The position numbers and the translations under genes were made by a program. From positions 48,784 to 112,783 of IMG/VR virus record IMGVR_UViG_3300037067_023527: a DNA stretch of 64,000 nt; one strand, 5' to 3'. The stretch's first letter is position 1; every line of letters begins with the position of its first letter. Below, one piece after another: positions 5,029 through 19,927 of the stretch. The DNA comes from a virus (taxonomy: Duplodnaviria > Caudoviricetes). The notes below the pieces were generated by a model that searched no databases, had not been told where the DNA came from, and saw nothing but the letters and a program-made list of their open reading frames with translations.

Positions 5029-5103
5029 GGCGGGGTGGAGCAGAGGTAGCTCGTTGGGCCCATAACCCAAAGGTCGCGAGTTCAAATCTCGCCCCCGCTC
5101 CCA
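5029..5103 (+). tRNA. tRNA-Met(CAT), initiator type, with C33, G1-U72 and C73
   Basis: Cloverleaf; three G-C pairs in anticodon stem, A11-U24, TTCAAAT T-loop, encoded CCA. Confidence 0.9.
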
Positions 5104-5104
5104 T

Positions 5105-5180
5105 GGGCTGATCGTCCAATTTGGCAAGACACCTGATTTGCATTCAGGAGATCGGGGTTCAAGTCCCCGTCGGTCCACCA
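5105..5180 (+). tRNA. tRNA-Ala(TGC)
   Basis: Cloverleaf, G3-U70 identity pair, anticodon loop TTTGCAT, CCA. Confidence 0.95.
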
Positions 5181-5199
5181 GCAATCATAGGAGCTAACT

Positions 5200-5469
5200 T
5201 TGGCCAAAAAATTCATTCTTAGGCGAATCTATCTATGGTTTCGCGCTCGGTGGATGCTGCACAAGACTCTCATGAATGACAAGACCGCGCTCGAGCTGGT
5301 AAAAGACAGGGAAAAGGCCCTCATGGATAGAGAAGTCCTTAGATTCATTTCGCAACGGCAGTGCAGCGCAGTGCGCCAGGAGCAATGCATTGTGGAGAAG
5401 CCGAAGGATCTAAAAGATTGGTGCCCGCGGTGCATAGCCTTGGATCACTTGGTCAATTATAGGGGATAA
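5200..5469 (+). CDS. hypothetical protein
   Basis: AGGAG RBS, TTG start, WCPRC. Confidence 0.55.
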   Translation: MAKKFILRRIYLWFRARWMLHKTLMNDKTALELVKDREKALMDREVLRFISQRQCSAVRQEQCIVEKPKDLKDWCPRCIALDHLVNYRG

Positions 5470-5470
5470 A

Positions 5471-5809
5471 ATGGAAAAGCTTCAGTCTCCAGACGTCACT
5501 GTCCCTGCCATTGTGCAAGATCCAACGGAGCCGTGTCCGGTATGTTGTTTTGTGCCCACCGGAGGGGATACGCCGATTCTTCTTCGATGGAGAAGGCTAA
5601 CTATAGGCCCGAGAGAAGAAACGGTTTATTGGCTTAGCGATGCCGGAGTATGGATATGCAAGGCTTGTCATCCTCCGGGGCATCCAGATTTGGTCAAAAG
5701 GGAAATAACTATTCGGGGCGTGGCCAAGCGGGAAGGCTCTCGGCCTGGGACTGAGGAATGCGCTGGTCCGAATCCAGCCGCTCCGACCATGGAAGAATTT
5801 ATTATATAG
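5471..5809 (+). CDS. zinc-ribbon hypothetical protein; 3' part reads through a tRNA-Pro-like sequence
   Basis: CPVC..WICKACHPP; GGGGA RBS. Confidence 0.55.
   Translation: MEKLQSPDVTVPAIVQDPTEPCPVCCFVPTGGDTPILLRWRRLTIGPREETVYWLSDAGVWICKACHPPGHPDLVKREITIRGVAKREGSRPGTEECAGPNPAAPTMEEFII
5714..5789 (+). tRNA. tRNA-Pro(TGG)-like, atypical or degenerate (C33, T-loop TCCGAAT)
   Basis: Acceptor CGGGGCG/CGCTCCG-A-CCA; anticodon arm CTCGG-CCTGGGA-CTGAG; T-stem GCTGG/CCAGC; 76 nt. Confidence 0.75.
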
Positions 5810-5818
5810 TGGTGAAGT

Positions 5819-5989
5819 ATGCCGAGAGTAGTAACGAAGCGGTGTAACAGGTGGGGGACTGGCAAAGAACTTGTTGGAAAAAACAAGACTATTGAAAGAT
5901 CCCTTCTTCGCATTGAACGCAGTGATCGTTGGCGCCGAGACAGAAATAAGCGCCGGCGGGAAAGGCAGAAGTTGAATGGAAGACCTTAA
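5819..5989 (+). CDS. small Arg-rich hypothetical protein (56 aa, not in ORF track)
   Basis: GGTGA RBS; fills the gap between neighbours. Confidence 0.4.
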   Translation: MPRVVTKRCNRWGTGKELVGKNKTIERSLLRIERSDRWRRDRNKRRRERQKLNGRP

Positions 5990-6161
5990 GACTGGAGATG
6001 TTGTCAGGTTGAATAGCGGTGGACCTAAAATGACGGTAGAAAAGGTTCTCCTGGACGATCATTCTAACCGTATCATCCGATGCGCTTGGATGGATGATCC
6101 TGGGGCAATGCAGGTTCAAAGGGGTGAGTTTTACGAAGCAGAGGTAAGTAAAATCGCGTAA
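5976..6161 (+). CDS. YodC / DUF2158 family protein
   Basis: GDVVRLNSGGPKMTV..CAW. Confidence 0.9.
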   Translation: MEDLKTGDVVRLNSGGPKMTVEKVLLDDHSNRIIRCAWMDDPGAMQVQRGEFYEAEVSKIA

Positions 6162-6162
6162 G

Positions 6163-6251
6163 GGAAGGGTCGCCTAACGGTATGGCACCCGGTTGCTAAC
6201 CGGACGCTGGGGAAACCCGGCATAGAGGTTCGAGTCCTCTTCCTTCCGCCA
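6163..6251 (+). tRNA. tRNA-Ser(GCT)
   Basis: Long variable arm, loop TTGCTAA, G73, CCA. Confidence 0.93.
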
Positions 6252-6267
6252 ATATCAGGATCAAATA

Positions 6268-6444
6268 ATGAAGAATCTACGTCAAGTATGGGTCATCGAA
6301 GTGAGAGTAAATAAAGGACCATGGATACCGGTTGAATCTAGGCTAACAAGATCTATGGCAAGGACAAGTTGCCATAATCTGCGTCCGCAATTCAACAAAA
6401 GGTTGAGCCGATTGCGGGTTAGTAAATATATTCCGGTTCCATAA
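6268..6444 (+). CDS. small hypothetical protein (58 aa, not in ORF track)
   Basis: AGGA RBS; MKNLRQVWVIEV.. Confidence 0.45.
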   Translation: MKNLRQVWVIEVRVNKGPWIPVESRLTRSMARTSCHNLRPQFNKRLSRLRVSKYIPVP

Positions 6445-6511
6445 TTCAGGGGCCCTGCGAATAGGGAGCGCGGGTAAGCGGAAACTACATCCCTTTAAAA
6501 CGGCCTCTTAA

Positions 6512-6587
6512 GGTTCCATCGTCTAGTGGCCCAGGATGTCTGACTGTCGATCAGAGGACACGGGTTCGAATCCCGTTGGGACCGCCA
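6512..6587 (+). tRNA. tRNA-Asp(GTC)
   Basis: Cloverleaf, loop CTGTCGA, G73, CCA. Confidence 0.95.
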
Positions 6588-6600
6588 AAGGGGAAGTAAA

Positions 6601-6855
6601 ATGGAATACGAAAGAGGCCCATTTTCAATTAAAAGCAGGCCAGTTCCGGATGATACCGTAGATAGATGGTCTGCTTATCCCATCGATAGTCAGATACACA
6701 GGGAACAGAAGCTTCCATGCCTTGTATCTAAGTCTCAGGAGAAGATAAACCAGATGGTCGATTTCGTTCTGGAACTACCGATCGAGGAACGTCCCGACGG
6801 ATCAGACGCGGCGGCTTGGAATAAACTACTCGAGGAGCGCGGAATCATACCGTAA
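6601..6855 (+). CDS. hypothetical protein
   Basis: GGGGA RBS. Confidence 0.55.
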   Translation: MEYERGPFSIKSRPVPDDTVDRWSAYPIDSQIHREQKLPCLVSKSQEKINQMVDFVLELPIEERPDGSDAAAWNKLLEERGIIP

Positions 6856-18249: not shown

Positions 18250-18273
18250 TCAACTTAACTCAAGGAGAGTCAA

Positions 18274-18288
18274 ATGCTTACGTGGGAT
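18274..18288 (+). CDS. major capsid protein exon 1 (MLTWD)
   Basis: AAGGAG RBS; ends in U within the P1 helix; joins in frame to GAC at 18974. Confidence 0.85.
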
Positions 18289-18973
18289 TAAAATTGAGTA
18301 TGGTCCCACTCAAACTTCGCTATATGCTGGAACAGCCTAAAGCCAAGGATGCCAATGAGCGAAAATTCCGAGGATAAGACAATGGCCAATCAGCAGGAAA
18401 CAGATATAGCATGGCTTGCAGGTATCTTCGATGGAGAAGGTACGATATCGGTGACAAAGAACAATGGGACAAAAAATCCCGAATGGAATTGCCGGAAAAC
18501 AGATATGGCTATAGGGAACGGTGACGAGAGAATTATTTTGAGGGCAGTACAAATATTAGAATCTCTCGGAATCCGTCCATATTTGACATGTGCTGAGCCG
18601 GCAAGTCACCAGAGGCTAAAACGGTGGAGAATTGGCGTTACCAAAAGAGCTGATGTAAGAAGGCTCACAGAGTTGCTTATTCCCCAACTGACGGCCAAAA
18701 AAGAACAAGCCATTTTATTGAATCGGTATGTGACCTCAAGGATCGAACGTGAAGAGAAGTTAGGGATGACACGTAAGAATCCGGTTTCTTTGGATGAAGT
18801 ATCTTTGGGGAATCAAATACTAGACTTCAATAATCCACTATCTGGCCCCTCACAGACTGCACGCGAAGACGCAAGAAATAGCTTGCGGATGATACAGTCG
18901 GGCCTCATGTGAAAGCATGAGAGGTCAGCAGAAATGACTGGCCCCTTCGCTCGCGCGAAGAGTAACAAAAGCG
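18289..18973 (+). mobile_element. group I self-splicing intron (685 nt) in the major capsid gene
   Basis: P1 GTGGGAT/GTCCCAC with U-G at splice site; P3 CTTCGC/GCGAAG; P4 TGCTG/CAGCA; P7 GACTG/CAGTC; P8 CGCAAG/CTTGCG; P9 hairpins; terminal G. Confidence 0.92.
18382..18912 (+). CDS. intron-encoded single-motif LAGLIDADG homing endonuclease
   Basis: AWLAGIFDGEGTISV and LTAKKEQA; GAGGA RBS before ATG 18382 (ORF track start 18349). Confidence 0.88.
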   Translation: MANQQETDIAWLAGIFDGEGTISVTKNNGTKNPEWNCRKTDMAIGNGDERIILRAVQILESLGIRPYLTCAEPASHQRLKRWRIGVTKRADVRRLTELLIPQLTAKKEQAILLNRYVTSRIEREEKLGMTRKNPVSLDEVSLGNQILDFNNPLSGPSQTAREDARNSLRMIQSGLM

Positions 18974-19927
18974 GACATAACTGGAAAAGTCCAGCGGCAT
19001 ATTATCCCTCGGTTGATCGATGTCGTTTATAAATCGTCACCCGTCTTCACCCGTCTTCGGACACGGTGCGCGGAGCGATTTGAGGGCGGCACCAAGATCA
19101 GCCAACCGATCGGATATGCCGAGCTGAATGGAGACGCGTACAAACGCGGCGGTCAGTTCAAAACTGAGTACGTCCAAACCGATACCAACATTGAGGTCGC
19201 GCCAAAGTTTTACTATGTCACGATCTCTGCCTATGGACCGGACAATGTTCTGGCTCGTGGGCCCGAAGCCGCAATGTCTTACATCGAATCCAAATTTGTG
19301 AATGCTTCTGGAAAAATGGCCAAACTCCTGGCCCAGAACATGTATCGGGATGGAACTGGCGTTGTATCCGATACCATTCACGTCGATGGATTCCTGGCTG
19401 CACTGGACAATGGTTTGACCTACGGGTCCTATGCAGGAGTGGATCGTAGCGATCTCGGTATCGCGGACGGCACCAACAACCAGGGGATTAACGCGTATGT
19501 TAATACCCTGTCGACCTTCACCATGAAGGGCATGCAGACCGCCTATGGAGCTTCTTACATGGGCAACGAGCATGTGGATATGATCGCGACCACTCAGGAT
19601 TGCTGGAACCTGATTTACAACAAAATTCTCCCGCAGCAACGATTCGAGGCGACGGGCGAAGATGTTGCCAAAATCGGTTTTCAGGCTCTTCGGTGGAATG
19701 GAGTCACCATCGTGGTCGACCAGTATTGCCCGGCCGGCTACATCTGGGGGCTCAACACGAATTACATCCAGTTCTGGGTTTCCACTCTTCCGCGTTACCA
19801 GTTCGGCTGGACCGGTTGGAAAGAGGCGCAGGGCACAGATGACATGGTCGGACAGTATTTGTGGAGTGGCAACTATCTGGTTACCAACCCACGCATGATG
19901 TTCCAATTGAACGGAGTTACGGCCTAA
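18974..19927 (+). CDS. major capsid protein exon 2 (spliced product 322 aa)
   Basis: DITGKVQRHIIPRLIDVVYKSSPVFTRL..; follows scaffold; no good RBS/start of its own. Confidence 0.87.
   Translation, partial: DITGKVQRHIIPRLIDVVYKSSPVFTRLRTRCAERFEGGTKISQPIGYAELNGDAYKRGGQFKTEYVQTDTNIEVAPKFYYVTISAYGPDNVLARGPEAAMSYIESKFVNASGKMAKLLAQNMYRDGTGVVSDTIHVDGFLAALDNGLTYGSYAGVDRSDLGIADGTNNQGINAYVNTLSTFTMKGMQTAYGASYMGNEHVDMIATTQDCWNLIYNKILPQQRFEATGEDVAKIGFQALRWNGVTIVVDQYCPAGYIWGLNTNYIQFWVSTLPRYQFGWTGWKEAQGTDDMVGQYLWSGNYLVTNPRMMFQLNGVTA

Follow-up and report, generated by a model that had tools for sequence, protein, structure and literature searches.

A predicted mobile group I intron after codon 5 of a phage major capsid gene and its relatives in other phage capsid genes

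The stretch analysed here, a 64-kb window, is the right-hand part of a 112,783-bp IMG/VR virus record that has direct terminal repeats and is rated complete by CheckV. In this window, late structural genes surround a major capsid gene that is split by 685 nucleotides (nt) at positions 18289–18973, and these 685 nt are very probably a mobile intron of group I that has entered the gene between codons 5 and 6. Intronless alleles, family-level Rfam matches, covariation in every helix and purifying selection across the junction all support this assignment.

The capsid gene reads as two exons

The features of the split gene are as follows (SD, Shine–Dalgarno sequence).

18262–18269, + strand, capsid SD AAGGAGAG, read directly from the sequence; strong, ending 4 nt 5' of ATG 18274
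18274–18288, + strand, capsid exon 1, ATG CTT ACG TGG GAT, encoding MLTWD (15 nt, codons 1–5)
18289–18973, + strand, predicted group I intron, 685 nt, with an in-frame TAA (18289–18291) at its start and the terminal guanosine (omega-G, 18973) at its end
18974–19927, + strand, capsid exon 2 (DITGKVQRHIIPRL...), in which the database call begins only at TTG 19013

The open reading frame (ORF) at 19013–19927 matches phrog_9953, annotated 'major head protein', with E = 7.3e-25. Residues 3–293 align to profile positions 26–320 of 329, and the start of the match at position 26 hints that this ORF misses its N-terminus. In a tblastn search it had 24–27% identity to major capsid proteins, namely those of Myxococcus phages Mx8 and Mx9 and of Stenotrophomonas phage BUCT555. 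In the capsid frame, TTG 19013 is the first ATG, GTG or TTG after the upstream stop, although the frame is open from about 18935, reading ...KADITGKVQRHIIPRLIDVVY. In addition, reading of the sequence 5' of TTG 19013 found no SD comparable to AAGGAGAG. Joining 18288 to 18974 gives a 322-aa protein that starts MLTWDDITGKVQRHIIPRLIDVVYKSS, with the predicted spliced junction TGGGAT/GACATA lying within ACGTGGGAT/GACATAACTGG.

An earlier note on this DNA, made from its letters alone, had placed the intron right after codon 5 with a 322-aa joined product and had named alignment to intronless capsid homologues as a check. That alignment was run, and it bore out the placement at both the protein and the DNA level. 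A search of 5.8 billion proteins returned 270 capsid homologues, most of which are 318–327 aa long and begin M(A)LT[WYF]DD[IL][TS].K.... The closest, P0002, is uninterrupted, 322 aa long and 89% identical, and its N-terminus is identical letter for letter to the spliced prediction, which is also close to more than 90 other homologues of 318–327 aa. Moreover, the N-terminal 18 residues are conserved across all full-length homologues. The intronless DNA allele L001 (IMGVR_UViG_3300037067_019213) reads ATGTTGACCTGGGAT/GATATCACAGG (also ...ACCTGGGAT/GATATCACAGG...; the slash marks the insertion site), so that TGGGAT and GAT are contiguous. Because L001 has nothing between the exon halves, the boundaries of the intron are unambiguous.

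Over the first 25 codons, the joined gene and L001 differ by 13 synonymous and 0 non-synonymous changes. Exon 1 contributes 2 synonymous and 0 non-synonymous differences, and codons 6–18, which lie upstream of the TTG chosen by gene callers, contribute 7 and 0. This comparison indicates purifying selection at the protein level on exon 1 as well as on the beginning of exon 2, in which case the 685 nt must be removed at the RNA level. As the earlier note had also claimed, translation of unspliced RNA would stop after the pentapeptide MLTWD, at the in-frame UAA with which the intron begins (TAA at 18289). Its further statement that ORF callers miss the true N-terminus agrees with the database entry for this gene, P0001, which is the 304-aa ORF from TTG 19013 and is devoid of the MLTWDDITGKVQRHIIPR segment.

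About 11 further capsid homologue clusters are likewise short, at 299–304 aa (P0007, P0025, P0027, P0030–32, P0035, P0040, P0078, P0106 and P0110). These clusters start near VDNVYKSS or MYKSSP and are probably further intron-split, mis-annotated genes; P0025 and the endonuclease P0128 are apparently on one 94,914-bp contig. The capsid gene described here and about a dozen related database entries thus appear to be mis-called at 299–304 aa, with the loss of at least 18 first residues.

Covariation points to a group I fold

Introns at the same site, with homologous endonucleases, were found in two independent contigs. In L101 (Ga0315284_10017947) the flanking residues are MALTWD/DITGK and the endonuclease is 73% identical to the window copy; in L081 (IMGVR_UViG_3300047314_000506) they are MALTWG/DLNGK and the identity is 51%. 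The window, L101 and L081 introns were placed in one alignment (A5) together with a structure derived by hand, which comprises 12 helices and 61 pairs. The predicted elements are listed below with their basis (MFE, minimum free energy fold).

18282–88 (GUGGGAU, last 7 exon nt) / 18303–09 (GUCCCAC, internal guide sequence), + strand, P1; alignment and MFE
18315–20 (CUUCGC) / 18863–68 (GCGAAG), + strand, P3, pairing across the ORF; alignment
18325–30 / 18390–95, + strand, P4; alignment and MFE
18335–37 / 18384–86, + strand, P5; alignment and MFE
18343–44 / 18372–73 and 18347–49 / 18367–69, + strand, P5a; alignment and MFE
18396–97 / 18848–49, + strand, P6; alignment
18401–04 / 18841–44 and 18407–09 / 18838–40, + strand, P6a, with the ORF body within loop L6a; alignment
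within 18838–18973 (3' catalytic domain), + strand, J6/7, UCA
18855–59 / 18895–99, + strand, P7; alignment and RNAalifold
18870–75 / 18882–87, + strand, P8; alignment and RNAalifold
18904–10 / 18915–21, + strand, P9, with a GAAA loop; alignment and RNAalifold
18923–28 / 18938–43, + strand, P9.1, with the conserved CAGAAAUGA loop; alignment and RNAalifold
18945–50 / 18955–60, + strand, P9.2; alignment

P1, P3, P4, P7, P8, P9 and the terminal G, which the earlier note had described as identifiable, could all be located, together with P5, P5a, P6/P6a, P9.1 and P9.2. A conserved GUAACA tail precedes omega-G 18973, and a G terminates all three same-site introns. In A5, 94.5% of the cells were paired, compared with 34–41% when the partners were slid by 1–3 columns, and 15 pairs had changed on both sides, compared with 0–1 when slid. 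None of 500 shuffles reached the observed number of paired cells, the number of compensatory pairs or the covariation score.

P1 contains two of the 15 compensatory pairs, both tied to exon changes across the three copies. The guide sequence tracks the exon, in that codon ACG goes with a guide ending ...CCCAC and ACC with ...CCCAG, and the change of GAU to GGU is accompanied by U to C in the guide. The U.G wobble at the 5' splice site (U18288–G18303) is invariant in all three. Furthermore, single-sequence MFE folds gave the same P4/P5/P5a, the entire 3' domain (z-score −3.06) and P1, the last reaching 2 bp further into the intron.

A hairpin overlapping the guide sequence in the window copy (UUGAGU/ACUCAA) was dismissed, as it is conserved in neither L101 nor L081. 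The two strands of P9.2 are identical to those of P3 (CUUCGC/GCGAAG), so alternative P3/P9.2 pairings are possible in the window copy; L101 shows this identity only in part and L081 not at all. Two copies of the 9-mer CUGGCCCCU are present in the intron, at 18842–18850 (3' strands of P6a and P6) and at 18938–18946 (3' strand of P9.1). A blastn search of the intron region against GenBank phages gave no match.

Related introns lie mostly in major head protein genes

A wider family was defined by an exact 21-mer core motif, CAATGGNCAATCAGCAGGAAA (18380–18400 in the window), which spans the 3' strand of P5, J5/4, the 3' strand of P4 and P6 and has one free position. The motif is present exactly in 46 IMG/VR contigs (loci L113–L158) and once in the window's own genome, and none of 100 window shuffles matched it even when 3 mismatches were allowed. 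Members that have no ORF pass the gathering score of 50 bits of the Rfam group I covariance model RF00028, such as L146 (71.9 bits) and L151 (70 bits), and the Rfam alignment of these members has the same P3, P4, P5, P6/P6a, P7, P8 and P9 layout as the window intron.

The pairing of P3 was followed in 28 usable members, whose two strands are 60–550 nt apart and include 22 distinct 5' strands. All six pairs formed in 27 of them and five of six in the remaining one. Own partners gave a mean of 5.72 pairs, a figure that includes one contig-truncated record scored 0, versus 3.80 for mismatched partners. RNAalifold on 19 family members (A3) recovered P7, P8, P9 and P9.1, with 16 of 21 pairs compensatory. 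P4 and P5 were predicted from an alignment of 18 members (A4), in which the free position of the motif (columns 23/116) covaries perfectly, with CG in 9, UA in 8 and GC in 1.

The host genes of the family were assigned for all but eight of the 44 distinct loci. Exon-2 translations of eight members all match the major head protein PHROGs phrog_1357 or phrog_9953, and when these exons served as tblastn queries, homologues of the capsid gene turned up beside the intron in 22 of the 44 distinct IMG/VR loci. Nine more loci, whose flanking ORFs were scanned against PHROG, could be placed in capsid genes (phrog_1328, phrog_267 and phrog_1357). At least 31 of the 44 distinct members are therefore in major head protein genes, which belong to four PHROG families (9953, 1357, 1328 and 267) and are interrupted at many positions, in some cases by more than one intron per gene. 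The other sites identified are the large subunit gene of ribonucleotide reductase (L118), a tape-measure protein gene (L137) and phrog_13678 ORFs of unknown function (L141 and L147); in L152 the sole flanking ORF scanned is a glycosyltransferase. This distribution suggests that a single intron lineage has spread among environmental phages through capsid genes belonging to several unrelated head-protein families.

The endonuclease start coincides with ribozyme strands

The intron contains one further coding feature.

18382–18912, + strand, predicted ORF of 176 aa for a single-motif LAGLIDADG homing endonuclease, starting at the conserved ATG 18382 (MANQQETDIAWLAGIFDGEG...)

In-frame ATGs are also present further upstream, at 18349 and 18355, and the ORF list gives 18349–18912. 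An SD, GAGGA at 18370–74, lies 7 nt 5' of ATG 18382. The protein matches PF14528 with 28.6 bits (cutoff 22.5). Its 16 homologues, with 35–75% identity in the alignment, all begin at MxNQQE, and the motif WLAGIFDGEG is invariant among them. The AlphaFold model had a pLDDT of 83.4 and a pTM of 0.78, and the top Foldseek matches of this model were I-CreI, I-CvuI and I-MsoI (probability 1.00, TM 0.55–0.70, identity 15–19%). The predicted structure thus points to a single-motif LAGLIDADG enzyme with the I-CreI-like alpha-beta-beta-alpha-beta-beta-alpha fold, which is presumably homodimeric. A PDB sequence search gave a designed repeat protein as its sole match (E = 0.005), which was rejected as spurious. 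A profile scan of genome contigs found only distant LAGLIDADG matches, in two metagenome-assembled genomes.

The start of this ORF is built from the ribozyme core. The 3' strand of P5 consists of the G of ATG 18382 and the next two bases, codons 3–5 form the 3' strand of P4, and codons 5–6 contribute to P6. GG 18372–73 of the endonuclease SD pairs in P5a, and the stop codon TGA 18910–12 straddles the end of the P9 stem and the GAAA loop. Covariation in P5 toggles endonuclease residue 2 between Ala, Gly and Asp. LAGLIDADG ORFs that otherwise look unrelated share the MxNQQE start because their first six codons are the P5'–J5/4–P4'–P6 ribozyme strand.

Homing has indirect support in that some close alleles have the intron at this site and others do not. 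A pseudo-palindromic target, as would suit a homodimeric enzyme, was weak and inconsistent: in several alleles a symmetry centre recurred 1.5 nt downstream of the junction, with shuffle p values of 0.01–0.5, and in others none was found.

Evidence on the other side and alternative readings

Several observations weigh against a group I intron in the window. The same-site alignment comprises three copies only. P2 was not found in the fold, nor were P7.1/P7.2, and P10 was not convincing (0–2 bp); the absence of P2 and of a convincing P10 counts on this side. At the Rfam gathering threshold only tRNAs were found in the window, and an RF00028 search of its own genome gave zero matches. A local permissive RF00028 search gave 22 bits (E = 0.0038) at 18706–18921, below the gathering score, with a separate 11-bit P4/P5 fragment. 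The 22-bit match covers J6/7–P7–P3'–P8–J8/7–P7'–P9, with the whole model forced into the 3' half. The low score is explained by the endonuclease ORF, about 440 nt of which fill loop L6a, so that the model cannot span the core. The comparison with group I covariance models that the earlier note had named thus came out divided: the 3' core is matched, but not at the gathering score. Standard Rfam scanning would miss an intron of this type because the endonuclease ORF splits the core. Finally, ascertainment by an exact motif fixes the 3' strands of P4 and P5 by construction, and the invariance of these strands across the family therefore carries no weight.

The same shortcomings, namely a score under the gathering threshold, a weak P10 and an absent P2, would also be expected of a degenerate intron that has ceased to self-splice, whether it needs a maturase or host factor or comes from a defective genome variant in the metagenome. 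LAGLIDADG proteins sometimes act as maturases. However, no core helix is broken and compensatory changes occur among the three diverged copies, the genome is complete by CheckV and has terminal repeats, and relatives that are free of an ORF in L6a pass the threshold. We consider degeneration very improbable. Alternatively, a free-standing endonuclease gene could have split the capsid gene with no splicing involved, leaving a 304-aa capsid protein translated from TTG 19013 and the MLTWD and DITGK... codons as decaying remnants. Phages commonly carry free-standing homing endonuclease genes, and gene callers give exactly the 304-aa ORF P0001. Against this, TTG 19013 has no SD, codons 1–18 differ from L001 by 9 synonymous and 0 non-synonymous changes, the 18 N-terminal residues are conserved in all full-length homologues, and the RNA on either side covaries as a ribozyme fold, with a guide that follows the exon changes. 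These observations make a split without splicing extremely improbable. An intein, translational bypass and an assembly artefact were rejected on account of the in-frame stops, the 685-nt length and the occurrence of the same layout in three independent contigs.

Proposed splicing mechanism and its relation to translation

For the group I intron that we favour, catalysis, homing and any kinetic interplay with ribosomes are inferred as follows. P1 would form between the guide sequence at 18303–09 and the final seven bases of the exon, placing the U.G wobble at the splice site. The P3–P9 core would fold around loop L6a, whose ~440 nt accommodate the endonuclease ORF. Guanosine would attack at U18288, in line with standard group I chemistry, and exon ligation would follow after omega-G 18973. 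This would join ...UGGGAU to GACAUA... and restore the 322-aa capsid frame. By analogy with LAGLIDADG biology, the conserved LTWDDITGK coding site of intronless capsid alleles is presumably where the endonuclease cuts, and repair would copy the intron in. The most heavily expressed late gene of a phage could then depend wholly on RNA self-splicing.

Two translation starts appear to be embedded in this RNA. The SD, start and first codons of the endonuclease lie in P5a, P5 and P4, and the exon strand of P1 lies at +9 to +15 from the capsid AUG. As both start sites overlap ribozyme strands, translation at either of them should exclude the folded ribozyme. At the capsid start, loading of the ribosome-binding site might compete measurably with splicing, in which case capsid yield would depend on whether 30S binding or P1 docking came first. 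The geometry is in keeping with such competition. From AUG 18274, the exon strand of P1 falls at about the downstream edge of an initiating footprint, and a ribosome terminating at UAA 18289–91 would reach the guide sequence at 18303–09, so that formation of P1 would require a leader free of ribosomes; L101 and L081 share this arrangement. On the other hand, ribosomes in T4 assist the folding and splicing of introns and do not hinder them. The capsid is also the most abundant virion protein, and the same-site layout persists in three diverged phages, which argues that any cost of competition must be small. We regard measurable competition as possible but rather doubtful. In T4 introns, translation and splicing interact, and early in-frame stops are common (PMC3984707).

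A broader proposal is that the intron belongs to a large, undescribed group I lineage specialised in phage major capsid genes, in which the endonuclease start is built into the ribozyme and the mutual exclusion of translation and folding serves as a timer or throttle on late gene expression. Taken as a whole, this proposal is tentative and somewhat unlikely. The capsid bias at the family level and the overlap of translation with folding are the parts worth following up. With a splice site 15 nt from the start codon, the window intron would offer a compact natural test case for ribosome loading versus ribozyme folding, a relation so far studied mainly in T4 introns.

Comparison with known introns

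The earlier note had stated that phage introns lie mostly in nucleotide-metabolism or replication genes. This view is dated, as capsid-gene introns have been published for phages LittleE and Tuc2009 (PMC3706429) and the family described here is mostly capsid-borne. In mycobacteriophage LittleE (Cluster J; Pope et al., 2013), an 820-bp probable group I intron in the major capsid subunit gene is efficiently spliced, as verified by reverse transcription PCR and N-terminal sequencing (PMC3706429); the capsid-gene intron of lactococcal phage Tuc2009 is cited in the same paper. LittleE resembles the window in the host gene, in a phage genome of ~110 kb, in a LAGLIDADG-like ORF, and in the U that ends exon 1 and the G that ends the intron. 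In contrast, the LittleE intron is 820 bp long and lies deeper inside the gene with its ORF on the opposite strand, whereas the window intron follows codon 5 and has a sense-strand ORF that overlaps the ribozyme core. Capsid-gene introns are thus already known. The features peculiar to the window intron are its insertion 15 nt into the capsid ORF, an endonuclease ORF that runs on the sense strand and is hard-wired into the core, and the evidence for a predominantly capsid-borne lineage.

The phage T4 td intron, which encodes I-TevI, is likewise a phage group I intron that interrupts a protein-coding gene. Its endonuclease ORF also loops out of the P6 region, and an in-frame stop is present at or near the intron start. 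The td intron differs in belonging to subgroup IA2 with P2 and P7.1/P7.2, in its GIY-YIG endonuclease, in its nucleotide-metabolism host gene and in a long exon 1, whereas the window intron has no P2 or P7.1/P7.2, a LAGLIDADG enzyme and an exon 1 of only 15 nt. For td, work cited in PMC3984707 describes an interplay of translation with splicing and of endonuclease translation with ribozyme folding. The intron of the Chlamydomonas chloroplast large subunit rRNA gene, which encodes I-CreI, shares with the window a single-motif, homodimer-type LAGLIDADG enzyme in a group I intron, as do those of I-CvuI and I-MsoI. Unlike the capsid gene, its rRNA host gene is untranslated, and the target-site palindrome is not evident in the window.

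Other insertions in the capsid family and tRNA genes

The same capsid family has further insertions. In L072 (2283–3000) and L077 (2261–3000) the capsid gene is broken near residue 85 by inserts of ~700–740 nt, each with a LAGLIDADG ORF of ~210 aa, and the L077 insert scores 44.6 bits to RF00028. In L041 (281–2983; IMGVR_UViG_3300036761_003996) a single capsid gene is interrupted at least three times, after residues ~17, ~48 and ~70. The first insertion (~332–1007) has a 193-aa LAGLIDADG ORF together with the family CAGAAAUGA loop and GUAACAGAAUG tail, the second (~1102–1283) is short and has no ORF, and the third has a 331-aa double-motif LAGLIDADG ORF. In its dense loading of an essential or late gene, L041 is reminiscent of orf142 of Staphylococcus phage Twort, with three introns in one gene, and of the Jug phages (PMC12880540), although these have different hosts and intron families. 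The Jug phage introns average ~206 nt and are reported in terL, nrdD and the DNA polymerase gene (PMC12880540).

The contig of L149, which carries the family motif at 6611 and two tRNA genes, has a second, ORF-less group I intron at 1621–1813 (71.7 bits to RF00028). In the window itself, five tRNA genes are clustered at 5029–6584 on the + strand, with Rfam tRNA scores of 43–63 bits.

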